The position numbers and the translations under genes are program-made. A DNA stretch of 64,000 nucleotides from Oscillospiraceae bacterium (lineage in GTDB: Bacteria; Bacillota; Clostridia; Oscillospirales; CAG-272). Where the stretch lies: contig SVUG01000005.1 of NCBI GenBank assembly GCA_015063385.1, forward strand, positions 5,043-69,042, read 5' to 3'. A model generated the notes under the pieces. The model did not search any database, was not told the origin of the DNA, and saw nothing but the letters and a program-made list of their open reading frames with translations. Below are positions 831-45,094 of the stretch, in pieces (the stretch's first letter is position 1; the number at the start of each line of letters is the position of its first letter).

Positions 831-860
831 TTTGCATTTTGCATTTTGCACTTTGCATTT
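831..860. repeat. heptamer array (TTTGCAT/TTTGCAC x4), right arm of an inverted repeat
   Basis: Sequence TTTGCATTTTGCATTTTGCACTTTGCATTT. It forms a 23-bp perfect inverted repeat with 448..470 and abuts the stop codon of the upstream regulator (859..861). Confidence 0.9.
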
Positions 861-2094: not shown

Positions 2095-2174
2095 ATATAT
2101 TCTTTTACCTCCCGAAAACAGCGTTTTATATTATTCGTTATTACGAACTATTATTGCTCGCTTTAGCGAATAAT

Positions 2175-2203
2175 ATTATACATCTTTTTTTCGGGCCTGT
2201 CAA
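2175..2203 (-). promoter_or_regulatory. sigma-A type promoter for the LuxR-type regulator
   Basis: Minus-strand TTGACA (2203..2198), 17 nt spacer, TATAAT (2180..2175), about 80 nt upstream of the ATG. Confidence 0.6.
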
Positions 2204-2362
2204 TCGGTTTTTGAGTTTTATTTTTCTGCACAAAAAAGCGTAAGCAACAGCGAAAGACGGCACGAGTTCAGAGCAAAAAACGCAAAAAAGTAAATAAAAG
2301 TAGTCAAAGCCACCGAGTTAGTTGACAAAGCCCTCTCAAAAATTGAAGTTTTAAAATTCAAG

Positions 2363-2391
2363 AAAAAAAGAGCGGTGCTATTACACCGCTC
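2363..2391 (-). terminator. rho-independent terminator ending the fructan operon
   Basis: GAGCGGTG-CTATTA-CACCGCTC (2370..2391), followed on the minus strand by U7 (A-run 2363..2369). It lies immediately after the GH32 stop at 2397. Confidence 0.8.
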
Positions 2392-2396
2392 GTTTT

Positions 2397-3758: not shown

Positions 3759-3848
3759 ATTTATTCTTTCGTTTTTTGTGCCTCCCCCCACCGAGTTTGG
3801 CAGGGGAAGCTGTTTTGGTTAATTATGCGAATGTTTTAAGAGGGTTGT

Positions 3849-28623: not shown

Positions 28624-31600
28624 TTATTCTGCTGTAATTGCGCTGTAATAAGTATTGTCAAGGTAAATGCTGCCCTGAGTTTTTGCCGGAATATGCACTC
28701 GAATAAATCTTAGCGCGCTTGTGGTTTTGGTATTGGAGCCTGTGTAAAGAAGCTCACCGTTAACGTAGACTCTTATCTCGTTTCCGGTCGTGCTCATGTT
28801 TTTAAACTCGTATCTGATATTGAACCACTCGCCCTCGTTAAGCGACACCTGCTTATCTCCACACATCAGGCTATAGGTTGTAGTACTGTCCGAGTTACTG
28901 ACGACACAAAGCCTTGCCTGTGGCATACCGTTCCAGTGAGTAGCTATGCTGGCTGCCTGCGAATTGGAGCTGTAGAAAGCAAGGAACTCATAATTGTTAT
29001 CGGATCTGCCGCTTCCGGCACCCGTAAACATAATGTCGGTTTCGAAAACGTACTTGCTTCCCAAGGCGTCTGCTTGAATATTAAAATATGCTTCGGAGTT
29101 GTAGGCATTATTTGAAAGCTTGAGTGCAGAGTCACCGTCAACCAGCTCGACAGATGCGCTCATAGTAGCACCGTCCAAGGTGCCAGTGCCGCTAGTAATG
29201 AGCTTACCTGCTTCGCCAAGCGCGGTTGCCGTGGTGTCGGTATAGGTCAGGGTGTTATCGTTATCCGCATAAGCACCGTTGCCTCTGCCGGCAGTGGCAG
29301 GGGTATCGCCGGGCTGCTCAGGCTCATCTGCCACGGGGTCAAGCGCACCGAAGTAGACGTTATCAAGATGAAGTATACCGCTCGTCTTGTCGGGCATCCA
29401 TATTACCATAGATGCGAGCGACGAAGTCTTCTTGTCGGTCGTACCCGTATGAACGAGCGTTCCGTTCAGATAATACTTAACGTCGCCGCCGGTGGTGACG
29501 TCAGCTATGTCTATTCTGACGTTATACCACACCTCAGGAGTCAGCTCGATTTTAGTCGTATTGCCCTCGCCATTATTAACGCTCGCAACGAAGTAAAGCT
29601 TTCCGTCCTCTACGGTGATTGACGCACCTATGCCAAAGTACGCCGTGTTGGAGCTTTTCGTAGTAGAGCCCCAAAGCTGGAAGGCTATCTTGTCGGTTCT
29701 GCTGCTGCTCGCACGGTCAAGCTTTAGGTCTGCTTCGAGAACGTAGTGCTTGCCGCTGTTAGTCAAGGAATTGAGATAAATATATCCTGCCTTGCCGTAA
29801 GCGTTGCCAAGCTTGAGAGCGTTGTCATCGCCCTCGGGAGCAACCATTATACCTGCTGCAAATGCATCAACGTTTACCGCACTGTCAGCGCCGAGCTCGC
29901 CGCTTTCTATGAGATCGCCTGCGGTAGTATCGGTGAAGCCGAGAGAACCGTCCTTGTAATCACCTGTGCCGCGGTTAACGCTCGCGGAATTGTCGGTGCT
30001 ATCGGCAGGAATATCGGCTATCGCAACAGGAGTTATTACTGCGTCGTCCGCGTTGGGAATTACCGATGCGTCAATGCAGGTCTTGCCCGCTACGGTCTTG
30101 ACGAGTGCATAGCTCACGCTCTCGCCCTGAGTGATCTTTACCGCCTCCCAGGTATCGGGAGTGAGAGCTCTTACCGTAAGAGGATAGTTATAAATATTCT
30201 GATCAAGAGTATGAGTAAGAGTAAGCGTTATGGTATTCTCCGCGCTGACTGCCGTCACGGTAGCTGCGTGAGCCTCACGGGTGTAAAGCACGGCATCCTC
30301 GTAGAAGGCTACCCATACCTTGCCGTCGTTCTGAAGCCTTGCAACTGCCTCACATATGGTACGCAGATCCTTCTCGTACATCTGATTTGATGAAAGAGTA
30401 TCGTTGTTCGCCGCTAGCATATGAGTGAACAGCACTGCCATCTCACCGTTCTGTGTCTTCTCTATCGCGCTGAGTATTTCATCAACGTTCGAGCCGGAGA
30501 ACTGATAAGAGGGTGAAAATTTCCAATCAACGTTTTTGTCGGAGAGGCTGATATTCGCATTGCCGTAGGAATCTCTGCCTGCAATATAATAATTACCAAC
30601 CATCTCTTTCATTACCGCGGAGAATCTGTCGTCGCCGTACGTCGCCTTCTCGCTCCAGTATCCCGGATATGCATAAGTAAGCACGCGCTGGGACGGGAAC
30701 GCCTCGCGCAGAACGCTCTGCGAGGTAATAATCTCCTTGGTTATCAAGCCTGCGGAATCGTCAAGACCGGGGAAGTTGTGAGTCATGGAGTGCGAGCTGA
30801 GCTGCCATCTGCCCGTATCGAGATATCTTTGCCAGGTTGCAATTTTGCTCGCGTCAAGCACGCCGTCGGTATAAATTGCACCATTTGGATACATCGCAAT
30901 ATTTCCGCGAAGACCAAGCTCACGAAGCACCTCATCCATGATGTACATAGTACTTGATGCATCGTCGTGCATAAGAACGACTATACCGTCAGCACCGGTT
31001 GCAGTGGAGAGGATATTTGCACTGTTCTGAACGGTGTCGGCAGGATCGGGAGGAGTGATAACAACCTCATCGCCCGAGCCGCCCTCGTCACCCTCCTCCC
31101 CGGCGTCAAGCGCACCGAAGAAGGTGTTGTCAAGAGAAAGAGTTCCGAGTGCCTTCGTAGGAAGCCAAATTCTTATATACGAAAGAGCCGTACAGCTCTT
31201 TGTGGTAGCAAGAGTATTTATAAGCTCTCCGTTAAGATAATATTTTACTGCAGAGCCTGAAACAGAAACGTTTTCAAATTCAACCCTGAGGTTAAACCAC
31301 GTGCCCGCAGCAACCTGGTATTTTGCCGTGCCAATCTCTATGCTGATAACGCCGTCGTTGATACAAATTACAGGTCTGGTCCAGAACCAAGCAGTTGCAT
31401 CAGCGCTGCTGCCGGCAAGTATTTCGTAGAGCGCGCCGCCATCACGAGCACTGCTGTTGGCAATAACGGAGGAGTCAAGCATCATATCGGTTTCAAAGAC
31501 GTACTTTGTACCCGAGGTCGATGCCTTTATATTCAGATAACCCTGAGGTATATACTGATTATTTCCAAGAACGAGGGCGTTATCACCCGCCGCGGCTGCA

Positions 31601-34600
31601 ACCTTAATGAATATATTTTCTCCGTCAAGAGTTGCACCGTTGTTTGCTACGAGCTTACCTGCTTCTCCAAGGGCGGTTGCCGTAGTGTCGGTGTAGGTTA
31701 AAGTGTTCTCGTTGCTTGCGTAAGAGCCGCTGCCGCGAACGTACGTCGGGCCGGGAATTGCGGGAAGCTCAACCTTAGGCTCTTCCTGCTCGGGCTCGTC
31801 GGGCAAAATATCGCCCGTTGCCGCGAAGTAGGTGTTGTCAAGATACATTTTTCCGGTAGTATTCAAATTAAATCTAAGAAGCATATGGGAAGCTCCGCTT
31901 GCGGCTCTGGTATTTGCCGCAGAGTGAACGAGCTCACCGTTAAGGTAATACTTCACGAGACTGCCGCTTGCAAGTCCCTCAATTTCTATTCTCAGGTTGT
32001 ACCACTTGCTTGCTTCAAGAGCGCCCTCATAAGAATTGCCCTCTGCGTCAGTTCCTGCAAATGCAAGAGAATATGCGCCGTCTACAACTCTTATGCTACC
32101 CGAAGCACCGCCCCAGAAAATAGAATCAGAGGCATTCTGCGCGAGATAGAAGGAGAACAGATTGTTGTCGTCAGGACGCCATTCCGAGCCGCTCATAAGA
32201 GCAAAGTCGGTTTCAAATATATACGACGAGCCTGAGCGCTTTTCAGTGGGAAGAATGTAGAGCCACGGGTCACCCGTTCCGGTGGTTTTACCGTAATCAA
32301 GAGCCGCATCGCCCTTAATTCCAACTATTTTAGCGTATGCCATTCCCGAGATGTCACTTGGGTCGTAGGTCAGGCCGCTCGTGCCGAGCTTCTTGTCTAT
32401 GCTGAGAAGAGTAGCATTGGTGTCGGTGTACTGCACCGCGCTGTCCTTCTTGGTACCCGTGCCGCGTTTCGTCGCGTCGATAGCACCCGCTCCGACGATT
32501 TCCTCAATATTTACGGGAGGAATAATTACCGTATCGTCCTTAGGAAGATCCTTAACCGCGGAGAAATAAACGTTATCCATCAGAATCTGGCTCAGAGAGC
32601 TCTTGAGTCTGATACGTATCTGCATTCTTGCCAAAGCGTCGGAGGTGGCAGTGGTCAGTCTCTTCTGAACGAGAGTGTCGTTAATATAAATTCTTACCTC
32701 GCTGCCCTTCGTGCTTATATCCTGAATCTCTATACGGTAGTTATACCATACCTTCTGGTCGATAAACACGTTCTTGGCTGCGTCTACGTTGTAGCGCTGA
32801 ACTCCCTCGTAAACGTCAGCACTATATATGTGCGGGCTCGCAGAGAAGAATATTTTTCCGTTCTCGTCAGCGAAGAAGAATGAAAACAGTTGCTTGTCGT
32901 CCATCGAGGTCGTACCGTCTATGATACATATATCGGCTTCGAATACGTAGCTGTTAGCGTCGGTGGACTGAGCGTAAAGGTAGAGATACGGGTCACGCTG
33001 AGCTGATTTCTTAAAGGAAAGAATATTGGAGTAATCTCTGTCCTCTATAATAGTCGCATTAGTGGAGTAGTTGTAGTTATCAAACAAAAGCTGAGTAGGC
33101 TTATCAGTACCCAAAATGCCCTTGTTTACCATAGCGGTTGCCGTGGTTTTTTCAAAGTCGAGAGAATTCTCCTTGTACTTACCCTTGCCGTAATTGTCAC
33201 CGTTGTCAATCTCCAGATGAATATCCTGATCCACCTTAAGAGCGTGACCGAGATGAGCAAGGATATAGTTAAAGTGATACATATCAGCAGACGTGTATAT
33301 CGGCACCATGTTGCTTATGCCAAGGCAGGTATATATCAGAGATACAGTTCCTGAGGTACAGATATTAGTCGCGTTTACGTCACCCTCCTCGGTGTAAGGA
33401 AGTGCCGCAACGCAGCCCTGAGACTCATGTGCGGAATATTTGGGTGTGTAAGAGAATGAGCCGTCAGGCTTCATGAACGTAGCAAGCTTTTCTTTCGTTG
33501 CAGAGATAAGCTCTGCTGCCCTCTCGCGAAGATCGCTTCTTGCATTATCAACGATTGCTATGCCCTCCGGTCCGCCCGAAAGCGAGAGTATGCTGAATAT
33601 GTTGCTTATCGTAAACCAGGTGTTATAAATATCTACGCAAGCACCAACCTCCTCGTCGGAGCTGATGGCATCCATAGCCGCGCGAAGCGCCTTGTCGGAG
33701 TTGGGCATCATAACCTGTGCCGCCTCGTATACGCAGGAAATCTTCATTACGCCGTTTACTGCGTAATATTCAGAATAGGAGGGGTCGCTCTCGGATACGT
33801 AGTACCAGGTACCCGTTTCCTTGTTCTGCGCGTCGTTGAGGTGCTCTATCAAAATCTCTATGAGGTCATAATCCGCGCCCTCTCTTTGAAGCTCGTAATT
33901 GCGGGATCTTATCGTGTTGAAATATGATGCAAGAGTATTACCTGCTGCATAGGAATTATTCTTTACGTCAAGCGTGTTGAGGTAATTTCTGAAGCTCTCC
34001 TCATCGGCAAGATTTGCGTCGGTATTGGAGGCGGTCAGAATTGCCTCGGAAGCACCAACTGCAAAGCTTCTGGAAAGTCTTGCGGTTAGAGCCGCCGCGA
34101 GCTTCACACCCGAGCCCTTCACTCCGTTGGGAGTATCGTAAATGGGCTGAAGACCAAGTCTTTGAAGAATGCTCTCCGAACGCATAAGGTCACGGCCCTT
34201 ACGGCTGGTGCTGACTCCGTCACCCCACTGAGGATGATAGAAATATCCGCTCTCATCCTGAAGCGAGATAACGAATCTACCAATCTGGTCAAGAATTTCA
34301 TCGGGAAGGCTCTTGGTATAGTCGACGGTCATACCCGAGTTCTCAAGGAATGATAGTATCTGCTGCGTGCTTTCAACGTCAGGCAGATAGCCTTTAGTAT
34401 TTCTTGCGCTGTTAGAGTAATAGAAGCCGCCCGTGCCGCAGCTTGCGCCGCCTGCACATACGTCCGCAATGCACTGGCAGATTTCAGGCTCGTAAAGGTT
34501 TGCCATCCATACTATGAGGTCATCGCTGTAAATGGTATAAAGATCCTTGAGGGCGGAAACGATTTCCTCACCGTTCTCAAAGCTGCTTGCAATCACGCCC

Positions 34601-35166
34601 CACTGAGCCTCGCGCAAAATTTCGTCCTCTGCCGAGTAGAATTCAAATATATTAGCCGCGTCCTTGTGCACCACTCCGGGCTCAAGAACAAGCGCGTCAA
34701 CAACAAGATTCTTTACACAGTAATCAATCGCTGCGCGAACGCCTATGTAATCGTCATTTTCTTCAAAGGCTATTGCTATCGACTTTCCGTCGGTATATAT
34801 AAGCCATTTGACGTAGTTTTCCTCGTCGTCGGCAATCTCATCGGAGAGATAGAGGTCGGCAAGTCTTCTGTACGCCTCTATAGCAACAGGGCGGTTGGAC
34901 ATACCCACGACTATTTCATTTTCGTACGGAGTGCCGTCCTCTTCAGCCATCTTCACGTTAGTTTTCAGCGCCAGGGCGTTAGAAAACGTCGAGGCATATC
35001 CGCCCGAATACTCGCTGTCGAGGAAGCCGAGAGTTGAACCCTTGGAGTATATCGCCCCTTCAACAACCTCGGGTCCCTCGTCATTTCCTTTTATCAGGAA
35101 TATGGCGGTCACGACTCCGGCTATCGCCAGAATCAGCGCTACTATGATAATTGCAATTCTTCTCAT
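28624..35166 (-). CDS. giant membrane-anchored surface protein: N-domain + repeat-helical toroid-like domain + 5 LamG-like modules + CE4-like deacetylase insert
   Basis: 2180 aa with N-terminal signal anchor MRRIAIIIVALILAIAGVVTAIFLI. Blocks are shared with the 437-, 693- and 894-aa neighbours. LamG-like signature W[YF]N[LVIY]R[IV][ED]...[VI][KR][YV]Y[ILV]N[GD][ET]L...[LM]DN[TV][YF][FY] occurs five times. CE4-like motifs LMHDDAS, HSMTH, YAYPGY and LFTHML. Confidence 0.85.
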   Translation of the reverse strand: MRRIAIIIVALILAIAGVVTAIFLIKGNDEGPEVVEGAIYSKGSTLGFLDSEYSGGYASTFSNALALKTNVKMAEEDGTPYENEIVVGMSNRPVAIEAYRRLADLYLSDEIADDEENYVKWLIYTDGKSIAIAFEENDDYIGVRAAIDYCVKNLVVDALVLEPGVVHKDAANIFEFYSAEDEILREAQWGVIASSFENGEEIVSALKDLYTIYSDDLIVWMANLYEPEICQCIADVCAGGASCGTGGFYYSNSARNTKGYLPDVESTQQILSFLENSGMTVDYTKSLPDEILDQIGRFVISLQDESGYFYHPQWGDGVSTSRKGRDLMRSESILQRLGLQPIYDTPNGVKGSGVKLAAALTARLSRSFAVGASEAILTASNTDANLADEESFRNYLNTLDVKNNSYAAGNTLASYFNTIRSRNYELQREGADYDLIEILIEHLNDAQNKETGTWYYVSESDPSYSEYYAVNGVMKISCVYEAAQVMMPNSDKALRAAMDAISSDEEVGACVDIYNTWFTISNIFSILSLSGGPEGIAIVDNARSDLRERAAELISATKEKLATFMKPDGSFSYTPKYSAHESQGCVAALPYTEEGDVNATNICTSGTVSLIYTCLGISNMVPIYTSADMYHFNYILAHLGHALKVDQDIHLEIDNGDNYGKGKYKENSLDFEKTTATAMVNKGILGTDKPTQLLFDNYNYSTNATIIEDRDYSNILSFKKSAQRDPYLYLYAQSTDANSYVFEADICIIDGTTSMDDKQLFSFFFADENGKIFFSASPHIYSADVYEGVQRYNVDAAKNVFIDQKVWYNYRIEIQDISTKGSEVRIYINDTLVQKRLTTATSDALARMQIRIRLKSSLSQILMDNVYFSAVKDLPKDDTVIIPPVNIEEIVGAGAIDATKRGTGTKKDSAVQYTDTNATLLSIDKKLGTSGLTYDPSDISGMAYAKIVGIKGDAALDYGKTTGTGDPWLYILPTEKRSGSSYIFETDFALMSGSEWRPDDNNLFSFYLAQNASDSIFWGGASGSIRVVDGAYSLAFAGTDAEGNSYEGALEASKWYNLRIEIEGLASGSLVKYYLNGELVHSAANTRAASGASHMLLRFNLNTTGKMYLDNTYFAATGDILPDEPEQEEPKVELPAIPGPTYVRGSGSYASNENTLTYTDTTATALGEAGKLVANNGATLDGENIFIKVAAAAGDNALVLGNNQYIPQGYLNIKASTSGTKYVFETDMMLDSSVIANSSARDGGALYEILAGSSADATAWFWTRPVICINDGVISIEIGTAKYQVAAGTWFNLRVEFENVSVSGSAVKYYLNGELINTLATTKSCTALSYIRIWLPTKALGTLSLDNTFFGALDAGEEGDEGGSGDEVVITPPDPADTVQNSANILSTATGADGIVVLMHDDASSTMYIMDEVLRELGLRGNIAMYPNGAIYTDGVLDASKIATWQRYLDTGRWQLSSHSMTHNFPGLDDSAGLITKEIITSQSVLREAFPSQRVLTYAYPGYWSEKATYGDDRFSAVMKEMVGNYYIAGRDSYGNANISLSDKNVDWKFSPSYQFSGSNVDEILSAIEKTQNGEMAVLFTHMLAANNDTLSSNQMYEKDLRTICEAVARLQNDGKVWVAFYEDAVLYTREAHAATVTAVSAENTITLTLTHTLDQNIYNYPLTVRALTPDTWEAVKITQGESVSYALVKTVAGKTCIDASVIPNADDAVITPVAIADIPADSTDNSASVNRGTGDYKDGSLGFTDTTAGDLIESGELGADSAVNVDAFAAGIMVAPEGDDNALKLGNAYGKAGYIYLNSLTNSGKHYVLEADLKLDRASSSRTDKIAFQLWGSTTKSSNTAYFGIGASITVEDGKLYFVASVNNGEGNTTKIELTPEVWYNVRIDIADVTTGGDVKYYLNGTLVHTGTTDKKTSSLASMVIWMPDKTSGILHLDNVYFGALDPVADEPEQPGDTPATAGRGNGAYADNDNTLTYTDTTATALGEAGKLITSGTGTLDGATMSASVELVDGDSALKLSNNAYNSEAYFNIQADALGSKYVFETDIMFTGAGSGRSDNNYEFLAFYSSNSQAASIATHWNGMPQARLCVVSNSDSTTTYSLMCGDKQVSLNEGEWFNIRYEFKNMSTTGNEIRVYVNGELLYTGSNTKTTSALRFIRVHIPAKTQGSIYLDNTYYSAITAE

Positions 35167-36476
35167 TCAGATATGCTCCTTTCGGTTGTTTTTTCGGTTA
35201 ATCTTCTTTTTTCAATTATGCTCATATATCTATCAAAATCACAGCGTACAAAAAGCGGTACCTTGTAATCGGACAGGTCAAGTCCGCGGTAAACGTGGGA
35301 TAACAGTCCCGTTGCCGCAAGAATATGTCCGTTTATATCTCCCTCAGGGCTGCGCTCTATCGCTACGGGCATACCCTGTGAGGTTTGCGAGGAGAAATTA
35401 ACGCCGTAGGAGAACGAGCCGCTCTCCTTTTTAAACGCCACGACCTTTTTTGCCGTTGCGCGAATGGCTTCGGGTGCGGCGGCACGCACGGTGCGGATTA
35501 CCTCCTCCGCTTCCCTTTCGCCGTTCTCACCGCACTCGCGGAGCGAGCGAATCAGGTTGCCTATGGCAAACCAAGGGTTAAAGAGGTCTACTGCCCCGTT
35601 GACAGGCTCGTCGGAGAGCAAAACTCTGATGCAAGAGCCTGCAAGAGCCTTCGCGTGAGGGACTATGCGATGCATACCGTTGTATACACAAGTGATTTTC
35701 ATAACGCCGTTAATGGCAAAATAATTTTCTTCTTTATGCCACAGTCCGTTTTCGAACTGATGCTCATTCAAAAAATCAATACACTGATCCACAAGGCCCG
35801 CGTGCTTTATCATATCGGTCTGGCACGTCAGCTCGTGTCCTGTGGAGTATGATTGCTCGTTTATATTCCTTGATTCGAGGAATTCTGCAAACTTTTCTTT
35901 ACTTTTAAGGTGTTCAGGAAGAACTATGTCCTTTGATTCCTTTGCTTTTGCTCCGTCTGAAATGGAGACGTATTTCTTCGTTCTGCCGAAGGAGTTGAGT
36001 ATTTTGTTCGCCCACATCAAATCTCTGCTTCGTCTGGAGAAATTGATGTCCTTGCCCCAATGCTCGTGATAAAAATATCCGTCGGGGTCCTGCAGAGAGA
36101 GCGTCCATTCTGACAAATCATTCTGCATCCAATCGGGAAGCGCAAGTGACAGCTTGTTATCAAAGTCCTCTATCATTCCGCTGGACTCAAAGAAGCCAAG
36201 CGCCTGCGAGGTCGACTCAAGATCGGGACGCAGAAGATAGGTCTTACCCTTATATTCTCGGCTATCGTTGTCACGCGCACTGGCTGAATAATACCAGCCT
36301 GCACCGCTGACGTCATATAACGAGGCAAACCAGTCTATTGCATCGGGAGTATACACCTCGTACAGCTCCTTCATAGCATCGACTATCTCCTCACCGTTTT
36401 CACCGCCGATGGCGGCTGCAAGCGCGCGCCATCTGGGCTCGCGTATCTGTTCTCTTTGAATTTTATAGCTGTCCAT
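35163..36476 (-). CDS. cytoplasmic stand-alone paralog of the repeat-helical toroid-like domain
   Basis: 437 aa, no signal peptide. Colinear with aa about 183-640 of the 2180-aa protein (NGEEIV.A.K.LY, LQDPDGYFYHEHWG, AINGVMKITCVY, KKESGSFSYG). Its stop overlaps the next ATG (ATGA at 35163..35166). Confidence 0.8.
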   Translation of the reverse strand: MDSYKIQREQIREPRWRALAAAIGGENGEEIVDAMKELYEVYTPDAIDWFASLYDVSGAGWYYSASARDNDSREYKGKTYLLRPDLESTSQALGFFESSGMIEDFDNKLSLALPDWMQNDLSEWTLSLQDPDGYFYHEHWGKDINFSRRSRDLMWANKILNSFGRTKKYVSISDGAKAKESKDIVLPEHLKSKEKFAEFLESRNINEQSYSTGHELTCQTDMIKHAGLVDQCIDFLNEHQFENGLWHKEENYFAINGVMKITCVYNGMHRIVPHAKALAGSCIRVLLSDEPVNGAVDLFNPWFAIGNLIRSLRECGENGEREAEEVIRTVRAAAPEAIRATAKKVVAFKKESGSFSYGVNFSSQTSQGMPVAIERSPEGDINGHILAATGLLSHVYRGLDLSDYKVPLFVRCDFDRYMSIIEKRRLTEKTTERSISE

Positions 36477-36511
36477 AATTTCACCTAAAATAAGATGGGA
36501 TTGCTTCCCTT

Positions 36512-36561
36512 GGGTAGTTAATTTGCAAACTACCCCCGTACCACTGCTGACACGGGGGTAG
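36512..36561 (-). promoter_or_regulatory. two mutually exclusive hairpins between the 693-aa and 437-aa genes
   Basis: GGGTAGTT(36512..36519)/AACTACCC(36528..36535) and CTACCCCCGT(36530..36539)/ACGGGGGTAG(36552..36561) share nt 36530..36535. On the minus-strand RNA the 10-bp hairpin comes first and is followed by UUUGCAAAUU. Confidence 0.4.
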
Positions 36562-36586
36562 AGTCGTTTTGTAGATTATTCAGCAG

Positions 36587-38668
36587 TTACTGAATCGCCT
36601 TAAAGCATGTGTTGTCAATGTAAATATTTGCAGTAGAGCTTGGAGGTGCCCAGAGACGAATGAAGCGGAATGCCGTAGTGGTCTTAGTTGTAGCACCGGT
36701 GTATATAAGCTCACCGTTTACGTAATATTTAATTGCGCTACCGGTTGTCTTCCAGTCTTCAAACTCGAATCTGATATTCACCCACTCACCGGGGTTAACG
36801 ACCACCTTGCCTTCTCCGCGCTCGACGTAATAGGTTGTCACGTCATCAACCGTCTTCGCAGTGAATGCAAGAGATGTCATGCCTCCCCAGAAGGACGAAC
36901 TACCGTCAGTAGCCGTAGAGCTGTAGAACTGAAGGAACTCGTAATTCTGAGAGCTTCTGTTACTTGTAGCATCGATGAACATAATATCTGTTTCGAAAAC
37001 GTACTTATTTTTATTAAGAACGTCACTGGCAATATTGAAATATCCTGCAGATGCACTGGGATTGTTGGAAAGATGAAGCGCAGCATCACCATTTACGTTA
37101 ACTACTGATGCAGTGATACCCTCGCCGTCGAGAGTTGCACCGTTGGTAGCTGTCATCTTGCCTGCCTCGCCAAGAGCGGTTGCTGTAGTTCCGGTATAGG
37201 TAAGAGTGTTAGCGTCGGATGCGTAGCTACCCTCGCCGCGGCTACCTGCGTTGCCAACCGTGCCGAAGAAGGTGTTATCAAGGTAGAGAGTACCGGTAGC
37301 GGTCTTTCCATCAGCGCCGGGCATGCAAATACGTAGCTGGGAAATGCTGTTAGTGCTGGCAGCCTTCGTGCCCGAGCCAACGAGCTGACCGTTTACGTAG
37401 TATTTGATAACGTGATCAGCCTGCTTAACGTCCTCGAACTCAACGCGAAGGTTAATCCAGGAGTCAAGATCAAAGGTATAATCAAGACCCGTTGCAGTCA
37501 TTCTCAAAACGGGATTTTCGGCATCGGTAGTATCGTAGCTGATAGTAATGCTATCAAGCGCCCAGTTAACAAACGTCGCACCACCGTAATAGATGTGGAA
37601 GATTTCGCCGCCGGTACGCGTGCTTGCACAAGCAGCAACGTCGCTGTTAACCTTCAGGTCGGTTTCAAACGCGTAGACGTTGCCAATCTCGGGGCTGAAT
37701 CTGGGAATGTTTATGTAAGCCTCGTTTGAAGGAGCATTGCTTACGAAGCGTAGCGCGTAGTCACCGTTATCAAGCACGTGCTCTGCGTATAGGCCTTCAT
37801 TTTCAACGGCTTCACCCTTTTGAGTAGTGGTTGCCCACGTAGATATATTGCTAAAATCATTAGCACGGTCAAGGTAAATACCCGTACCGCGATAGGTGTG
37901 AGGAACGCAAAGAACGCTCTCTGTGACGCTGAAGGTTTCACCGTCAGATACCGTATCAACAAGCTCGCCTGCCTTGTTGTAGAGATTCCAGGTATCTGCC
38001 TTCTCATCACCCGTGTAGGTAAGAGAAATTTCGTCACCTACGAGGTAAGCACCCTTCTTATACTCTCCTGTGACGATACCGTCGGTCACCTTAACGTATC
38101 TGTAATTGGTGGGAATATCGTCTGCACCGCCGGGATAGTAATCGAGAAGAAGCTGTGCTGCGTCGCCTGCTGCAAGGAGCTTGCCGTAAGCCTCAGCCTT
38201 ATCCTCGTTATCGGTGGTAAAGATCATCTCGTTAAGATACTCAACTACGCTATATCTTCTCACAGGGCTCTTCGTGCCGTCAGCGGCAACAGCCTGAACG
38301 AAGAACTCGGTAGCAAGGTTCTTGAGTGCAACACCGGGAGTCTCAAACGCACGGCAGGTATAGCTTACGTCCTCGCCGCCGGGAATTACTACTTCCTCGT
38401 GAGCGGTGACGGTAGCAAGAAGCTCTGCCTCTGCATTCTTATCGGGATCTGCGGCGTATACGTTGAGCACCAAGCCCTCGGTATCCACGTTCTCGGGATA
38501 AACCGCATAGTAGAGATACATTTTTTCTGAATATTCAACCTTCTGGCTGATGATGTTAAGGCTCTTTTCAGGCTCACTCTCAACTGCAAAAGCAGTAATG
38601 CCGATGCAAGAAGCAACAAGGAGAACGAGCGAGATAGCCAGAACTATAATTTTAGTCTGTTTTTTCAT
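36587..38668 (-). CDS. secreted/lipoprotein member of the LamG-module family (unknown N-domain + 2 LamG-like modules)
   Basis: 693 aa. Signal MKKQTKIIVLAISLVLLVASC. The C-terminal module resembles the last module of the 2180-aa protein, including the linker RGEGSYASDANTLTYTGTTATALGEAGKM. Confidence 0.85.
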   Translation of the reverse strand: MKKQTKIIVLAISLVLLVASCIGITAFAVESEPEKSLNIISQKVEYSEKMYLYYAVYPENVDTEGLVLNVYAADPDKNAEAELLATVTAHEEVVIPGGEDVSYTCRAFETPGVALKNLATEFFVQAVAADGTKSPVRRYSVVEYLNEMIFTTDNEDKAEAYGKLLAAGDAAQLLLDYYPGGADDIPTNYRYVKVTDGIVTGEYKKGAYLVGDEISLTYTGDEKADTWNLYNKAGELVDTVSDGETFSVTESVLCVPHTYRGTGIYLDRANDFSNISTWATTTQKGEAVENEGLYAEHVLDNGDYALRFVSNAPSNEAYINIPRFSPEIGNVYAFETDLKVNSDVAACASTRTGGEIFHIYYGGATFVNWALDSITISYDTTDAENPVLRMTATGLDYTFDLDSWINLRVEFEDVKQADHVIKYYVNGQLVGSGTKAASTNSISQLRICMPGADGKTATGTLYLDNTFFGTVGNAGSRGEGSYASDANTLTYTGTTATALGEAGKMTATNGATLDGEGITASVVNVNGDAALHLSNNPSASAGYFNIASDVLNKNKYVFETDIMFIDATSNRSSQNYEFLQFYSSTATDGSSSFWGGMTSLAFTAKTVDDVTTYYVERGEGKVVVNPGEWVNIRFEFEDWKTTGSAIKYYVNGELIYTGATTKTTTAFRFIRLWAPPSSTANIYIDNTCFKAIQ

Positions 38669-38704: not shown

Positions 38705-38866
38705 TTACCAATCGCGAGGATCTACGGGAGTCCACTCGCCTCCGTTTCCTTCACCATCGGGGTCAAGCGTGCCGCCGCCCGACGTTGTAATCACGTCTGC
38801 AGTAGAAAACAAAACGATCTTCATTTTTGCTTCCTCATACGCTTTCTTTAGTTCAAGAGTATTCAC
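38705..38866 (-). CDS. small ORF (53 aa from GTG 38866; 59 aa from ATG 38884), first gene of the 693/437/2180 operon
   Basis: GGAGGT lies 6 nt before the GTG. Translation (M)NTLELKKAYEEAKMKIVLFSTADVITTSGGGTLDPDGEGNGGEWTPVDPRDW. Below the 60-aa track cutoff. No family recognised. Confidence 0.45.
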   Translation of the reverse strand: MNTLELKKAYEEAKMKIVLFSTADVITTSGGGTLDPDGEGNGGEWTPVDPRDW

Positions 38867-38908
38867 GTTTTTACCTCCATTCATCTAATTTTTTATTATT
38901 CCATTTTA

Positions 38909-38937
38909 ATAATATCATATATAAACAAAAAGTGTTA
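38909..38937 (-). promoter_or_regulatory. promoter of the small-ORF/693/437/2180 operon (weak -35)
   Basis: Minus-strand TAACAC (38937..38932), 17 nt spacer, TATTAT (38914..38909). The same layout occurs upstream of the 894-aa gene. Confidence 0.5.
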
Positions 38938-38955
38938 GCAAAATATATAAAAGAT

Positions 38956-38973
38956 ACTTGTAAAATTCATAGA
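38956..38973 (-). promoter_or_regulatory. conserved 18-mer TCTATGAATTTTACAAGT (candidate AraC-regulator site)
   Basis: Lies 18 nt upstream of the TAACAC box. 16/18 identical to 44975..44992 at the same spacing. Overlaps the -35 of the divergent araC-type promoter. Confidence 0.5.
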
Positions 38974-38986
38974 TTTATGTTATAAT
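38958..38986 (+). promoter_or_regulatory. araC-family gene promoter, copy 1 (drives the truncated copy)
   Basis: TTGTAA (38958..38963), 17 nt spacer, TATAAT (38981..38986). Confidence 0.55.
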
Positions 38987-39028
38987 AAATAACAAAAAGG
39001 ACAAAAAGCAAAAGGGAAGGAGAAAAAT

Positions 39029-39406
39029 ATGATTTCACATATAGGTACGAAGGCTACGCTGGCACCCCAGGATTTGTATCCCGACCACACTCATCATTGC
39101 TTTGAAATAACCTATATACACGAGGGGTGCGGCTTTATGCACACCGCAAACGGTGACATGCCGTTTGAGAAAAACAGCTTTTACATTATACCGCCCAACG
39201 CGATACACAGTCTGGTTTCAGCCAACGGGCACATAGCAACGTCCATGCTAACCAGAAACGAGCGCCTATCAAGCATACGCGACGTGATGTGGGCAAGAGA
39301 CGTTGTAATCACGTCTGCAGTAGAAAACAAAACGATCTTCATTTTTGCTTCCTCATACGCTTTCTTTAGTTCAAGAGTATTCACGTTTTTACCTCCATTC
39401 ATCTAA
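39029..39406 (+). pseudogene. truncated duplicate of the AraC-family regulator (cupin half only)
   Basis: The first 92 codons are identical to 39547..39822. At the duplication junction the frame runs into antisense small-ORF sequence (VITSAVENKTIFIF...). No HTH domain. Confidence 0.85.
39181..39402 (-). pseudogene. chimeric duplicate of the small ORF
   Basis: The first 35 codons are identical to the intact copy (MNGGKNVNTLELKKAYEEAKMKIVLFSTADVITTS). It then reads antisense through the truncated araC copy. Confidence 0.75.
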
Positions 39407-39473
39407 TTTTTTATTATTCCATTTTAATAATATCATATATAAACAAAAAGTGTTAGCAAAATATATAAAAGAT

Positions 39474-39504
39474 ACTTGTAAAATTCATAGATTTATGTTA
39501 TAAT
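39474..39504 (+). promoter_or_regulatory. copy 2 of the 18-mer and araC-family promoter (drives the intact regulator)
   Basis: Exact duplicate of 38956..38986, shifted by 518 bp. Confidence 0.55.
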
Positions 39505-39546
39505 AAATAACAAAAAGGACAAAAAGCAAAAGGGAAGGAGAAAAAT

Positions 39547-40296
39547 ATGATTTCACATATAGGTACGAAGGCTACGCTGGCACCCCAGGATTTGTATCCC
39601 GACCACACTCATCATTGCTTTGAAATAACCTATATACACGAGGGGTGCGGCTTTATGCACACCGCAAACGGTGACATGCCGTTTGAGAAAAACAGCTTTT
39701 ACATTATACCGCCCAACGCGATACACAGTCTGGTTTCAGCCAACGGGCACATAGCAACGTCCATGCTAACCAGAAACGAGCGCCTATCAAGCATACGCGA
39801 CGTGATGTGGGCAAGAGACGTTGATAATCACGAGCTCGAGAGCATTATAAAAATTATGGTCGAGCACAGGAGCGACCTTGGTGAATTTTTGCAGTATCTC
39901 GGAAAGGCCGTGGTGCTGATTATGCTTGATTTGATTGGAATAGACGAGCTGGAGCAGGCTCGTTCTAAGGCCGTTGAGCAGATAATTACCAAAATCAACC
40001 GTCATTTTTCCGACCCTGAGTTCAAGGTTAAGACCGCGCTCGAAGAATCGCCTTACGCTGAGGATTACATCAGAGAAATTTTTAAGGCACAAACCGGCTT
40101 GACGCCAATGCAGATGCTCTCCGAGGTGCGCCTCAAGCACGCGGAAAATATTATGCTTTACTCATTGTCGGAGCGTTCAATATCCAATATTGCGCTAGAG
40201 AGCGGATTTGACGACCTCGCTTACTTTTCCAAGGTGTTCAAAAAGCGATTTGGAATGTCGCCCGCGGAATATAAGAAAAAGAACGGCAAGCTCTGA
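39547..40296 (+). CDS. AraC-family transcriptional regulator (cupin sensor + AraC HTH)
   Basis: 249 aa with GGAAGGAG RBS. The C-terminus ISNIALESGFDDLAYFSKVFKKRFGMSPAEYKK is a typical AraC second HTH. Confidence 0.9.
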   Translation: MISHIGTKATLAPQDLYPDHTHHCFEITYIHEGCGFMHTANGDMPFEKNSFYIIPPNAIHSLVSANGHIATSMLTRNERLSSIRDVMWARDVDNHELESIIKIMVEHRSDLGEFLQYLGKAVVLIMLDLIGIDELEQARSKAVEQIITKINRHFSDPEFKVKTALEESPYAEDYIREIFKAQTGLTPMQMLSEVRLKHAENIMLYSLSERSISNIALESGFDDLAYFSKVFKKRFGMSPAEYKKKNGKL

Positions 40297-40363: not shown

Positions 40364-42076
40364 TTAAAACGTTTTTGTTTGTTTTGTTATATTTCGGTAT
40401 ATTTCCTTCACCGCGAAGAAGGACGCCTTCGGATTTCTGTATTCGTTAAGAAGTCCCTTGTTGTTGTAGCCTCTTGCGCGAGAAATTCCCGCCTCGTACG
40501 AGGTTCTGACGTCACAGAATTGCCAGATGTACGTGCCGACCATCATGGGATCGCCAAGGAACAGATTCAAGCAGTGCGAAAGCAATCTCGCCTGATATTC
40601 CTCGCTCCAGCGATAAGTTTCAAAATTGCGGTGACCGTACACTGCTGCGCCGCCGAACTCGCTCATGATTACGGGCTTGTTATCAAAGCCGAGCTTGCTC
40701 CTGTACGCGCGGAAGTCCTCGATGAATTTACCCCAGGATTCAATGTCACCCTCGTACCAGCCGTTGTACTGGTTAAGACAGATGATATCACAGTATTCAA
40801 ATGAAATATCGCTAAGCGCCTTGTTAGAAGCATAGGTGACGATGCGGTTGCCGCCGATTTCCTTTAAGAGCGAGTAATACTTTTTAGTCATTTCAAGACC
40901 GGCAACGGTATCCGAAAGAATTTCGTTATGCATACCCCAAATTATGATAGAGGGATGGTTGTAATAATGCTTTACCATCTCACGATGCATTTCCTCGCCT
41001 CGACGAATTACCACGGGGTCAAGAAGCACGCTCTCCTCAAATCCAACGCCCCAAATCGGGATTTCGCTCCAGAAGGTTATTCCCCTCTCGTCGAGCATGT
41101 CAACGAATGCAGGATTGTTTGGATAATGAGCTCCGCGGAGCGAGTTGCAGCCCATGTCGACAGCAATATCAATGTCGCGCCTCATGAGCGCGCTCGGAAA
41201 GGCAAAGCCGAAGTCGGGGTGGTCCTCGTGCCTGTTTACACCGCGGATGCGGTATTCGCTACCGTTGAGCAAAATTTTGCCGTCGCTCACGCATATTTTA
41301 CGGAAGCCAACGCGGTCAAAAAGGTCATCAGATGAGGTTGAAATTTTCACATCATATAGTGCCGGATTTTCCGCAGACCATAGCGAAAAATCAGTAATTT
41401 TGACAGCATTTGTAAATTCTTCTTTACATTCCCCCGCTTTTAAGAGCGATTCAAATTCAAAATCGGCGCCCGCGACGCTAACCCTTATAGTATCTTTTAT
41501 TTCTTTTTCGGAGGCATTATACAGTTCAAGGGCGACTCGAAGATTAAGCTCGCAAAGATCGTCGGAAAGCTCGTACTCCACCCTGTTTGAAAGTATCGAA
41601 ACACCCTCAAGGCGCTCAACGCTTACGGAACGAATAATACCTCCGCAGTGATACCAGTCGACCAAAGCCTGTGGAATCGACTGCTCGTCGAAGGAATTGT
41701 CTACTCTTACGGTGAGTCGATGCTCTCCGCTTGTGACGTCGCGCACTATCAGCTCAAAGGGGCAAAAGCCGCCGTAATGATAGCCTATTTCCTCTCCGTC
41801 AAGATAAACTCGCGACTCGGTCATCACCGCACCGAAAACAAAGCGCAGCGTGCCGCCGTGGCTGAAGAATTGACGCTCGTACCAAGCCACTCCCTCGTAC
41901 TCGAGCAATCCAAGCTGGGTATTCCATACGGACGGCACTATCACCGTCTGTGCGTTGGGAATCCCTCTTTGCCATCTTTCGCTATCTCCTCGATTATCGG
42001 GGTCGGTTGCAAATTTCCACGCTCCGTCGAGCGACTGCACAGCTCTTTTTATGTGTTCATCAAAAAGCCTCGTCAT
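40364..42076 (-). CDS. GH2 glycoside hydrolase (beta-glucuronidase/beta-galactosidase type), no signal peptide
   Basis: 570 aa. Motifs GAWKFATDP, YEGVAWYERQF, NRHEDHPDFG, IIWGMHNE (acid/base block) and VIMSEFGG (nucleophile block). Confidence 0.85.
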   Translation of the reverse strand: MTRLFDEHIKRAVQSLDGAWKFATDPDNRGDSERWQRGIPNAQTVIVPSVWNTQLGLLEYEGVAWYERQFFSHGGTLRFVFGAVMTESRVYLDGEEIGYHYGGFCPFELIVRDVTSGEHRLTVRVDNSFDEQSIPQALVDWYHCGGIIRSVSVERLEGVSILSNRVEYELSDDLCELNLRVALELYNASEKEIKDTIRVSVAGADFEFESLLKAGECKEEFTNAVKITDFSLWSAENPALYDVKISTSSDDLFDRVGFRKICVSDGKILLNGSEYRIRGVNRHEDHPDFGFAFPSALMRRDIDIAVDMGCNSLRGAHYPNNPAFVDMLDERGITFWSEIPIWGVGFEESVLLDPVVIRRGEEMHREMVKHYYNHPSIIIWGMHNEILSDTVAGLEMTKKYYSLLKEIGGNRIVTYASNKALSDISFEYCDIICLNQYNGWYEGDIESWGKFIEDFRAYRSKLGFDNKPVIMSEFGGAAVYGHRNFETYRWSEEYQARLLSHCLNLFLGDPMMVGTYIWQFCDVRTSYEAGISRARGYNNKGLLNEYRNPKASFFAVKEIYRNITKQTKTF

Positions 42077-42173: not shown

Positions 42174-44816
42174 TTAGCCCTTTGCGGCAAAGTAGGTGTT
42201 ATCAAGATATATCTGTCCTGTGGTTTTTGCATTGAAGCGCAAAAGCATATGAGATGCTGCGGATGCGCCTCTCGTAGTCACGGACGTATGAATGAGAGTG
42301 CCGTTTACGTAATACTTTACAAGGCTGCCGGTTTCAAGTCCCTCGATTTCCATTCTGAAATTATACCACTCGCCCGCAGTTATAGCACCCTCGTAGCTAC
42401 TTCCCTCCTGATTGGCAGTAGGAATGAGCAAGCTGTATCCGTCGTCGGTTGCAATTATATGGAAATGAGCTCCACCCCAGAAAATAGAATCCGAGCTGTT
42501 TTGCGAGAGATAGATAGAAAAAATTTGGTTATCGTTCGGCCTGCTTTCGCTTCCCGAAACGAGCGAGAAGTCGGTTTCAAATACGTACGACGAGCCGCCG
42601 CGCTGCTCGGTATACGGAACGTAAAGATAGGGGTCTGTGCTTGCACCGTTTCTGCCAAGCTCAAGCGCCTTGTCACCGTTGACGTCAACTACCTGGGCGT
42701 AGGAATATCCTACGGTGCTTTCCGGATCGAAGGTTATGCCGCTCGTGCCTATTTTTCCGTCTGCAGCAAGCTGAGTTGCCGTCGTGCCGTCGTATTTTAT
42801 CGCAGAATCCTTGTAATTTCCGCTACCGCGAGCTTCATCATCCGTCTGCGGAGGAGTAACGTCAGAGTCACTGTCTTCGTCATCGCTCATAGCAATCTTG
42901 ATAAAGCGCTCGTAGTCGGTTCTGGTGTAAATCGGGACCATGTCTGCTATTCCAAGGCAGCTGTATATCAAAGAGGTAGTACCCGTCACGCATATAACCG
43001 TTGCGTTTACGTCGCCCTCCTCGGTATTGGGCACTGCAGCAGGAGAGCCCTGCGATTTGTCTGCAGAATACTTGGGGGTATACGAGAACGAGCCGTCGGG
43101 CTTTTTAAAGATAGCAAGCTTTTCCTTTGTTGCCTTAATAAGCTCGGGAGCTCTGTTGTGCAGTTCCTCTCTCATCTCGTCTGAGAAACGTATATCCTGA
43201 ATGTTTCCGGTCGTGCTCAAAATAGAGAAAATATTGCTAATAGAAAACCAGGTGTTATAAATATCAACGCATGCGCCAAGCTCCTCGTCAGAGGTTATTG
43301 CATCTACTGCGGCTCGCATAGCCTTATCTGCATTTGGCATCGCAACCTTAGCTGCCTCGTATACGCAGGATATCTTCATTACGCCGTTTACAGCGTAATA
43401 TCCTGAATAATTCGGATCGTCCTTTGATACGTAATACCAAGTGCCCGTATCCTTGTTCTGTGCGTCGTTGAGGTGCTCAATCATAATATCTATGAGATCG
43501 TAATCAACGCCCTGGCGCTTAAGCTCGTTGTTGCGGGATCTGATAGTGTTGAAGTATGCGGCAAGAGTATTGCCCGCGCTATAAGAGTTATTCTTCACGT
43601 CAAGACGGTTGAGATAGTTCTTGAAGCTGACGTCATCAACGAGATTTGGATCGGTGGTAGATGCTGCCGAAACAACCGACGATGCTCCCGTGGCATAAGC
43701 AGTGGACAAGCGAGAGGTGAGTGCAACACTTGACGCGACGGCGCCACTACCCTTTGTACCGTTGGGGGTATCGTAAATAGGAGTTAAGCCAAGGTTTTTA
43801 AGTATGTTCTCCGACCACATAAGGTCGCGGCTCTTTCTGCCTAAAAAGACGTTCTTTCCCCATAGCGGGTGATAGAAATAGCCGTCGGGGTCCTGAATTG
43901 CAAGAACGTATCTGCCTATTCCGTCGAGCATTTCCTTCGGGAGCGTCTTGGCATAATTGTTAGTCATACCTGCTTTTTCAAGGAAACTGAGCGTCTGATT
44001 CGTGCTCTCAACGTCGGGTAAATATCCCTCGTTATCCCTTGCGCTGTTGGAGTAATAGAAGCCACTGGTGCCGCAGGTCTTACCGCCTATGCACACGTCG
44101 CCCGAGCACTGACAAATTGACGGCTCGTAAAGCCCCGCCAGCCAATCAACAGTGTCATCTCCATACAGCGTATACAAATCCTTCAGTGCAGCGGCGATCT
44201 TTTCACCGTTTCCCGTCAGCGTAGAAATTATCTGCCACTTGACGTTTAGCTGCGCCTCGTCCTCGGCCTCCTTAAAGGCGGTAATGCTTACCACGTCGGA
44301 TGAAACGACGCCGGGGTCAAGAATAAGGGTATCCTTCACCAAATTTTTGATAAAATAATCTATCGCAGAGCGAAGCGCTATATCCTCTTCGTTCTCATCA
44401 TATGCAACAGCCACGGATTTTCCGTCGGTGTATATCAGCCAACGCGCGCAGTCATCGGGGTTGTTTTTCATTTCATCGGTCAGCGAAACGTCCGAAAGCT
44501 TCTCATAAGCAGTCTTGGATACTGCTCTCTCAGATATTCCTATAACTACCTCATTCTCATAAGGAGCTCCGCTTTCAGAGGCAATTTTAAGGTGTGTTTT
44601 AAGCGCGAGAGCATTTGAAAGAGAGGAGGTATAATCGAGATTTCCGACAGATAAAAATCCCAGAGTCGATCCCTTAGAGTATATCGCCCCCTCAACTATA
44701 TCCGTAGGTTCTTTTCCGCCTTCGTTTTGAGTAGCATCTCCGAAAATAATCGAGCAGGATGCCATAGACGATACCGTCAAAACCAATACCAGAATTAAAG
44801 ATATAACTCTTTTCAT
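42174..44816 (-). CDS. surface lipoprotein paralog: N-domain + toroid-like domain + one LamG-like module
   Basis: The track ORF is 42174..44858. Start set at ATG 44816 (GGAGA 7 nt upstream). Signal MKRVISLILVLVLTVSSMASC. Colinear with the first roughly 1100 aa of the 2180-aa protein minus its first LamG-like module. Confidence 0.85.
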   Translation of the reverse strand: MKRVISLILVLVLTVSSMASCSIIFGDATQNEGGKEPTDIVEGAIYSKGSTLGFLSVGNLDYTSSLSNALALKTHLKIASESGAPYENEVVIGISERAVSKTAYEKLSDVSLTDEMKNNPDDCARWLIYTDGKSVAVAYDENEEDIALRSAIDYFIKNLVKDTLILDPGVVSSDVVSITAFKEAEDEAQLNVKWQIISTLTGNGEKIAAALKDLYTLYGDDTVDWLAGLYEPSICQCSGDVCIGGKTCGTSGFYYSNSARDNEGYLPDVESTNQTLSFLEKAGMTNNYAKTLPKEMLDGIGRYVLAIQDPDGYFYHPLWGKNVFLGRKSRDLMWSENILKNLGLTPIYDTPNGTKGSGAVASSVALTSRLSTAYATGASSVVSAASTTDPNLVDDVSFKNYLNRLDVKNNSYSAGNTLAAYFNTIRSRNNELKRQGVDYDLIDIMIEHLNDAQNKDTGTWYYVSKDDPNYSGYYAVNGVMKISCVYEAAKVAMPNADKAMRAAVDAITSDEELGACVDIYNTWFSISNIFSILSTTGNIQDIRFSDEMREELHNRAPELIKATKEKLAIFKKPDGSFSYTPKYSADKSQGSPAAVPNTEEGDVNATVICVTGTTSLIYSCLGIADMVPIYTRTDYERFIKIAMSDDEDSDSDVTPPQTDDEARGSGNYKDSAIKYDGTTATQLAADGKIGTSGITFDPESTVGYSYAQVVDVNGDKALELGRNGASTDPYLYVPYTEQRGGSSYVFETDFSLVSGSESRPNDNQIFSIYLSQNSSDSIFWGGAHFHIIATDDGYSLLIPTANQEGSSYEGAITAGEWYNFRMEIEGLETGSLVKYYVNGTLIHTSVTTRGASAASHMLLRFNAKTTGQIYLDNTYFAAKG

Positions 44817-44927: not shown

Positions 44928-44956
44928 ATTATACAATAAAAAAGATCAGAGTGTTA
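44928..44956 (-). promoter_or_regulatory. promoter of the 894-aa/GH2 operon (weak -35)
   Basis: Minus-strand TAACAC (44956..44951), 17 nt spacer, TATAAT (44933..44928). Confidence 0.5.
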
Positions 44957-44974
44957 TAAGAAAATATCAAAAAA

Positions 44975-44992
44975 ACTTGTAATTTTCATAGA
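44975..44992 (-). promoter_or_regulatory. conserved 18-mer TCTATGAAAATTACAAGT (candidate AraC-regulator site)
   Basis: Lies 18 nt upstream of the TAACAC box. 16/18 identical to 38956..38973. Confidence 0.5.
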
Positions 44993-45051: not shown

Positions 45052-45087
45052 AAAAAACAGCGCGGGGCGCTTTTGGGCCCTGCGCTG
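45052..45087 (-). terminator. rho-independent terminator of the amino-acid ABC operon
   Basis: 11-bp GC-rich stem CAGCGCGGGGC / GCCCTGCGCTG (one G-U pair), followed on the minus strand by U6. Confidence 0.75.
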
Positions 45088-45094
45088 TCGTTTT

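Follow-up and report, generated by a model that had tools for sequence, protein, structure and literature searches.

The window, by which we mean the whole stretch of 64,000 nucleotides analysed here, carries two operons on the minus strand, on either side of a plus-strand gene for an AraC-family regulator. We refer to the promoter of the operon headed by a small peptide gene (operon 1) as site B and to the promoter of the operon headed by a lipoprotein gene (operon 2) as site A. The genes and the larger features around them are the following.

28624..35166, minus strand: 2180-aa surface protein, operon 1 (behind its first gene, operon 1 spans 28624..38668)
35163..36476, minus strand: 437-aa protein, operon 1
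36587..38668, minus strand: 693-aa lectin-like lipoprotein, operon 1
38705..38866, minus strand: 53-aa peptide gene, first gene of operon 1, with a GTG start at 38866 and GGAGG 7 nt upstream
39299..39816: repeat copy of 38781..39298 in a perfect tandem duplication of 518 bp, with a duplicate operator and promoter
39547..40296, plus strand: intact AraC-family gene of 249 aa with a cupin domain and two HTH motifs, the candidate binder of the operator box described below
40364..42076, minus strand: GH2 gene of 570 aa, operon 2, with beta-galacturonidase 6ncw as the best solved relative
42174..44816, minus strand: gene heading operon 2, for an 880-aa lipoprotein (ATG at 44816) whose C-terminal domain is lectin-like and which has no Pfam match
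45057..45088, minus strand: terminator of the upstream amino-acid ABC transporter operon, shielding site A from read-through

The preliminary description of this locus let operon 2 begin with an 894-aa gene. The TTG start at 44858 implied by that length is unlikely, and the ATG at 44816 is the likely start, giving an 880-aa product with a lipoprotein-type signal peptide. This protein and the 693-aa protein of operon 1 have only the C-terminal lectin-like domain in common, at 37% identity, and most proteins of both operons do not belong to any Pfam family. Among solved structures, the GH2 protein matched beta-galacturonidase 6ncw best (1.4e-93), followed by many beta-glucuronidases. Neither operon contains a gene for a sugar transporter; the ABC transporter next to them belongs to the amino-acid type (SBP_bac_3) and is set apart by a terminator. 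The araC gene and the GH2 gene face each other across a bidirectional terminator. Its product matched PF12833 (6.9e-20), PF00165 (7.5e-14) and PF02311 (4.4e-06), and its DNA-binding domain is homologous to that of E. coli AraC (2k9s, 2.6e-09). The 53-aa peptide belongs to a family with the pattern helix...(I/V)LLF...DVI(T/A)TS...LDPDG.G...EWTP.(E/D)W-stop, which contains no cysteines and has no Pfam match. More distant versions of the peptide adjoin other AraC-type genes in relatives from the same genus (L014, L024).

The 518-bp tandem duplication encompasses the whole control region between operon 1 and araC, as well as 35 codons from the start of the peptide gene and 92 from the start of araC, and seven extra bases match at its junction (38781..39823). 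It has left a truncated araC ORF (39029..39406), a truncated copy of the peptide gene and a further identical copy of the operator box at 39474..39491. According to promoter prediction, the duplicated promoter at 39476..39504 drives the intact araC gene in this assembly. Eight other metagenome contigs from different samples, 99.8–100% identical to the window, all have a single copy, with 145 bp between the peptide gene and araC. The duplication is thus specific to this assembly or strain, and the natural layout is the peptide operon, a divergent region of 145 bp and araC.

The control elements at the two sites are located as follows.

44928..44933, minus strand: site A -10 hexamer TATAAT; its context attgTATAATtag is common to the C28 and L034 DUF4838 promoters described below
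44951..44957, minus strand: conserved aTAACAC block of site A, which provides a weak -35 (ATAACA) and may close a promoter-proximal half-site
44975..44992, minus strand: site A operator box TCTATGAAAATTACAAGT, at about -71..-54 of the promoter of the 880-aa/GH2 operon, scoring 26.0 bits
45015..45030, minus strand: upstream block ACAAAATTTGTACTTT with TTTGTMC inside, found by sequence comparison only
38909..38914, minus strand: site B -10 hexamer TATTAT with a TGn extension
38932..38938, minus strand: cTAACAC block of site B, which reads as a weak -35 and closes the degenerate repeat TTTATATATTTTGCTAAC (11/18 matches at an offset of +22)
38956..38973, minus strand: site B operator box TCTATGAATTTTACAAGT, scoring 35.2 bits; its reverse complement has TTGTAA, the -35 of the araC promoter
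38958..38986, plus strand: divergent araC promoter TTGTAA-17-TGtTATAAT from the promoter scan; by eye, orthologous loci keep the same promoter

The strings and coordinates in the preliminary description proved exact. On the minus strand, the 18-mer (44992..44975 at site A, 38973..38956 at site B) is followed after 18 nt by TAACAC (44956..44951 and 38937..38932) and, after a further 17 nt, by TATAAT (44933..44928) or TATTAT (38914..38909); the two 18-mers are identical at 16 of 18 positions and both spacers are equal in length. A promoter scanner independently called ATAACA-18-TATAAT (44957..44928) and CTAACA-18-TGaTATTAT (38938..38909), and the -35 elements are therefore better read one base leftward with a spacer of 18 nt. 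When the predicted promoters are numbered with the -10 hexamer at -12..-7, the box falls at about -71..-54 and TAACAC at about -35..-30. At both sites, as well as at a third promoter on contig C28 (CATAACA-18-TATAAT), the predicted -35 is poor (4/6) yet the predicted -10 is good, a combination that would be expected of an activator-dependent core promoter.

The consensus of the box is AAATCTRTGRAWWWTACAAGY. Its invariant positions fall into two blocks, TCTATGAA and TACAAGT, separated by about one helical turn. The arrangement TCTATGAA-N3-TACAAGT is invariant or nearly so in at least 11 promoter copies from nine lineages. With two blocks at this distance within about 17–18 bp, the box has the predicted form of a half-site for an AraC-type domain. 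A TTTGTMC block recurs 24–25 nt upstream of the box at most sites in the sequence comparison, and this block, within ACAAAATTTGTACTTT at site A, could represent a half-site, either auxiliary or inverted. Site A and the C28 promoter also have in common an extra near-palindromic block (ACAAAATTTGTACTTT and ACAATTTTGTACTTTA, the latter at L001 8641..8656), located 21–22 nt upstream of the box. Several other readings of the box were tried and rejected. A palindrome (TGAAA-N-TTACA) was dropped because its symmetry reaches only 3–4 of 5 positions among the sites, and two asymmetric blocks were preferred. The box is not a CcpA cre site, lacking the central CG by eye, nor an UP element, as the conserved positions contain G/C, nor part of an alternative-sigma promoter, as the -10 is a sigma-A-type TATAAT. 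Rfam covariance models gave no match near either site at E <= 1 and only two sub-threshold hits elsewhere, and the box lies between a terminator and the predicted -10; on both grounds it is not a known structured RNA element.

When the position weight matrix (PWM) of the box was scored along the downstream DNA, a second maximum appeared at +21/+22, corresponding to a degenerate direct repeat that ends in TAAC and overlaps the -35. The summed best score was -60, compared with -151 +/- 17 in 5000 shuffles, although the promoters are related by descent and their independence is thereby overstated. The repeat matches the box at 11–13 of 18 positions in the peptide promoters (nine in lineage L037) and at 7–8 of 18 at site A and C28, numbers which T-rich DNA inflates. 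One example is TTTATGAATTTTTCTAAC in lineage L034 (13/18). We regard this second half-site as suggestive rather than proven from such comparisons, and a single-site (class I-like) mechanism is possible.

The preliminary description had conceded that a motif common throughout the genome, for example as part of a dispersed repeat, would speak against a regulon. Within the window, four matches to the 18-mer with at most three mismatches were found against 0.19 expected, and none of 100 shuffles reached four. We searched the genome (1.69 Mb in 28 contigs, 88% complete) and found only five places with at most two mismatches: three without any mismatch, one of which is the tandem duplicate, one with a single mismatch, and one with two mismatches in a coding region. 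In a genome-wide PWM scan the promoter copies scored 35.2, 35.2, 26.0 and 23.6 bits. The next match, at 20.3 bits, is in coding DNA without TAAC and a -10, and the rest did not exceed 17 bits. Additional weak members of the regulon were sought among these further matches (<=20.3 bits) and rejected, being in coding DNA or without the TAAC/-10 geometry. The composite search of the genome retrieved only sites A and B, the duplicate copy and one promoter on C28. The three independent copies do not behave as a dispersed repeat, since each precedes a gene in the same orientation and keeps a fixed spacing to the -10. As the assembly is 88% complete, further members of the regulon may have escaped the search. 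Outside this genome, the composite of the box, 17–19 nt and TAAC was found in none of 60 related genomes and in four of about 185,000 species genomes, of which three look like chance and the fourth is L043, described below. A pattern scan of a metagenome collection, which may have left out records close to this genome, returned three chance-like places with no AraC gene nearby.

The copy with a single mismatch, at C28 60672..60689 (L001 8673..8690), belongs to the promoter of an unlinked gene. This promoter (L001 8673..8738) consists of TCTATGAAAAATACAAGT, 18 nt, TAACAC, 18 nt and TATAAT, and is followed by a ribosome-binding site and an ATG at 8760. The gene codes for a 604-aa heparinase II/III-like protein and is monocistronic between two terminators; an HPr-like gene precedes it, an ArsR/P-type ATPase pair follows, and no dedicated regulator gene is nearby. 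The proposal of a regulon of two operons thus holds for the shared architecture and is incomplete in its membership, as a third, unlinked member is found on C28. The core promoters of C28 and site A are identical at 42 of 50 positions, where the background is 26–32, and the two also have the upstream block ACAAWWTTTGTACTTT in common. The closest orthologue of the heparinase-like gene, at 84% identity, still has the HPr-like gene and the terminator upstream (L048 1..250, L049 150..330), but its promoter is unrelated, lacking the box and having a consensus TTGACA at -35. The membership of the heparinase-like gene in the regulon is therefore lineage-specific. A gene of the GH88 family (the unsaturated glucuronyl hydrolase family) is located 4 kb from the heparinase-like gene (L001 14417..15604); its own promoter is consensus-like and lacks the box.

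Among 120 genomes of the genus, none was found to encode an orthologue that exceeds 36% identity to the regulator. Metagenomes contained orthologues at 46–62% identity, and seven further lineages were recovered (L034/35, L036/37, L038/39, L040, L052, L053 and L054). In six of the seven, araC is divergent from a gene for a small peptide of 50–53 aa, followed by a protein of 475–480 aa wherever the contig reaches so far. The peptide genes in the orthologous loci are located as follows.

L034: 9659..9817
L037: 1120..1281
L038: 2260..2412
L040: 6750..6908
L052: about 3740..3900

A peptide gene of this family, coding for 50–59 aa, is the first gene under the operator at every orthologous locus with a readable downstream gene; in L054, only a 30-codon gene fragment follows the promoter at the contig end, and it cannot be confirmed as the peptide gene. 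While the other intergenic DNA has diverged, all seven lineages conserve AAATCTRTGRATTTTACAAGY, the elements TTTTATR..TTTTC-TAAC and a -10 of the form TGnTATTAT or TATAAT. The araC promoter TTGTAA-17-TGnTATAAT on the opposite strand is likewise kept in all seven, and the conservation of the box at the divergent loci could come partly from its role as the araC -35. In L034 a second site, AAATCTATAGATTTTACAAGT, 18 nt, TAACAT, 18 nt and TATAAT, precedes a DUF4838 gene on the opposite flank of araC. This lineage thereby repeats the two-promoter layout of the window, with araC flanked on both sides, in front of an unrelated gene. Beyond these orthologues, L043, a Clostridia MAG from goat caecum (309..2545), encodes a 246-aa AraC homologue of 34% identity, divergent from a MATE-like efflux gene, and the DNA between the two genes has the layout of box, 17 nt, TAACGG, 17 nt and TATACT.

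Some lineages depart from the common arrangement. L037 has a second full box, inverted, adjoining the araC start codon. The two boxes (1431..1451 on the plus and 1383..1403 on the minus strand), about 28 nt apart, bracket the araC promoter, one of them abutting the araC ribosome-binding site and ATG, and the same arrangement is seen in L036. Such paired inverted boxes suggest stronger autorepression in that lineage. No second site was found in L037 upstream of the esterase genes flanking araC. In L036 (8789..9847) the peptide operon is missing and a 352-aa ORF on the opposite strand comes directly after the conserved promoter, which may reflect an insertion or rearrangement.

The preliminary description offered two origins for the resemblance of sites A and B: a promoter duplicated together with paralogous genes, or an architecture maintained by a common regulator. 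The former finds no support in our data. The first gene behind site B codes for the 53-aa peptide and is not a paralogue of the first gene behind site A. Outside the conserved blocks, the two promoters are identical at 32 of 50 positions, equal to the AT-rich background, and the blocks persist across species. With paralogues at 37% identity, neutral promoter DNA of such age would be unrecognisable. Comparison of the promoters thus argues that the resemblance of A and B is due to selection by a common factor rather than to ancestry shared with the paralogues; common descent of promoter DNA appears plausible only for the pair of A and C28. The latter origin fits well, because the motif is nearly unique in the genome and is kept beside araC orthologues of 46–62% identity while the flanks have diverged. 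On these grounds, the box is very probably a real shared operator of some factor.

As to which factor, the AraC-type protein encoded between the operons was named early as the obvious candidate, and it is still the best one, since L034 has the same flanking layout and the box overlaps the -35 of the araC promoter itself. The gene for this predicted double-HTH protein is divergent from site B and lies between both operons, as expected if the operator has a linked regulator. The HTH segments are also the best-conserved part of the alignment of regulator orthologues. The genome encodes 12 AraC-family proteins, and adjacency alone is therefore weak evidence for the binder. No paralogue of the regulator above 31% identity was detected in this genome, and the box accompanies orthologues of the regulator in eight lineages as well as the 34% homologue in L043. 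Taking adjacency and co-occurrence together, we assign the box to the adjacent regulator, which probably binds it.

We consider it likely, judging from these sequence features, that the box is the operator of the regulator encoded at 39547..40296 and that this protein controls three promoters as an activator while also regulating its own gene. We infer the binder, the sign of the regulation and the inducer in the following way. The 18-mer would be the high-affinity, promoter-distal operator, and one AraC-type DNA-binding domain would place its two HTH motifs in adjacent major grooves, onto the two blocks of the box. A ligand from an acidic (uronic-acid) glycan might bind the cupin domain, upon which a dimer of the regulator would occupy both half-sites and recruit RNA polymerase. 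Three units would thereby be switched on: the operon of the peptide and the 693-aa, 437-aa and 2180-aa proteins, the operon of the 880-aa lipoprotein and the GH2 uronidase, and the unlinked heparinase II/III-like gene on C28. Since the araC -35 is contained in the reverse complement of the box, a bound regulator should lower araC transcription as well and probably limits its own synthesis.

The box could instead be a genuine shared operator bound by some other factor, either another of the AraC-family proteins (11 besides this one) or an unrelated protein, with araC merely a target. The number of AraC-family genes in the genome and the C28 site, which is not linked to any regulator, leave room for this explanation, but the box travels with the orthologues of this particular regulator in eight lineages and with its distant homologue in L043, and it is absent from the 60 related genomes, while homologues of the regulator in the 120 genomes of the genus do not exceed 36%. 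In addition, the two-block shape is that expected of an AraC-type domain, and by eye there is no match to the CcpA cre consensus, whose central CG is missing. Another binder is accordingly rather unlikely. A regulator acting mainly as a repressor, on promoters that are constitutive when free and in which TAAC is only a -35, is also improbable in our judgement. At all three targets the box is upstream of the core (about -71..-54), where a bound protein would not block the polymerase, the poor -35 (4/6) resembles that of activator-dependent promoters, and the box-less 84% heparinase orthologue carries a consensus TTGACA instead. This has to be set against three points: in the divergent region the box overlaps the araC -35, L037 has an additional inverted box covering the ribosome-binding region of araC, and AraC offers a precedent, repressing through the pairing of I1 with a distal site (PMC11983282).

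Promoter similarity might also be a relic of common descent, with a promoter cassette copied with or without its genes and no shared regulation at present. The agreement between A and C28 in the core beyond the box (42/50, well above the background of 26–32) points in this direction, and a copy or replacement in this lineage is plausible given that the closest heparinase orthologue does not have this promoter. Sites A and B, however, are alike only in the blocks, their first genes are unrelated and the paralogous domain is only 37% identical. The persistence of the blocks across species whose regulators are 46–62% identical, and in the L034 DUF4838 promoter, requires selection on the blocks, so that we hold descent without present regulation to be very improbable. 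Chance similarity is an obvious concern in AT-rich intergenic DNA, where short matches are frequent; the shuffles (0/100), the gap in PWM scores, the third copy with the same spacing and the conservation across species effectively refute it, leaving it with hardly any probability.

An activating AraC-type regulator at these promoters would have well-known counterparts. At araBAD in E. coli, AraC binds direct repeats 4 bp apart, of which the proximal site overlaps the -35; araI1 is bound far more tightly than araI2, and AraC autoregulates at PC (PMC11983282). The present system, as predicted from sequence, resembles araBAD (PBAD and PC) in the cupin-type sensor joined to a two-HTH domain, in the divergent orientation of the regulator and its target operon, and in a strong distal half-site of two blocks about one helical turn apart with a possible weaker direct repeat about 21 bp downstream over a poor -35. 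The operator likewise overlaps the promoter of the regulator, and one regulator is here proposed to serve several unlinked promoters. Unlike at araBAD, the box sequence is unrelated to araI (TAGC..TCCATA), there is no recognisable CRP-type co-activator site, and nothing like a distant O2 site that could form a 210-bp loop was detected, only the TTTGTMC block and the inverted box of L037. The protein is also shorter than AraC (249 aa), with only the DNA-binding domain detectably matching, and the host belongs to the Gram-positive-type Clostridia, unlike E. coli. RhaS/RhaR and other AraC/XylS-family sugar activators, as at PRha, similarly use two half-sites of 17–18 bp upstream of and overlapping the -35, and activation of the RhaS/RhaR type requires the sugar-bound regulator (PMC11983282). 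The half-sites of RhaS are inverted repeats 14–16 bp apart, whereas the weak second site here resembles a direct repeat at 21–22 bp.

Among gut Firmicutes, a parallel is offered by the gpPULs of Roseburia and Eubacterium rectale, glycoside hydrolase clusters in which an adjacent AraC-like regulator is presumed to be the controller (PMC5320581). In the part of the work of Sheridan et al. (2016) considered here, the regulators were identified by adjacency and no operators were defined (PMC5320581). Measured against the gpPULs, the present locus has the regulator and the GH2 gene; it differs in the absence of a carbohydrate transporter, or any other transporter gene, from both operons, in the many proteins without a Pfam family, and in a regulon that reaches an unlinked gene. 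The nearness of the GH2 protein to beta-galacturonidase and beta-glucuronidases, together with the heparinase II/III-like partner, suggests that the substrate is an acidic glycan containing uronic acids.

The proposed mechanism is conventional AraC-family biology, and the predicted regulon would be of an ordinary kind with good computational support. The motif provides a regulon hypothesis for a cassette of uncultured gut and rumen Clostridia in which nearly every protein is unannotated, from the small peptide and the lectin-like lipoproteins to the helical proteins and the giant surface protein, and ties this cassette to uronic-acid-active enzymes. It also defines a candidate pair of operator and regulator and an example of the lineage-specific recruitment of a gene into a regulon. 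A more speculative idea, to which we attach only a small likelihood, is that the promoter cassette (box, TAAC and attgTATAATtag) is itself the unit that is copied or swapped before new genes, and that the small Trp-ended peptide takes part in a sensing or feedback loop rather than being passive cargo. If this were true, cassette copying would let this AraC-type regulator recruit unlinked enzymes into its regulon within the lifetime of a species. The C28 promoter fits cassette copying in that its core is 84% identical to that of site A while the 84% orthologue of the heparinase-like gene has an unrelated consensus promoter.
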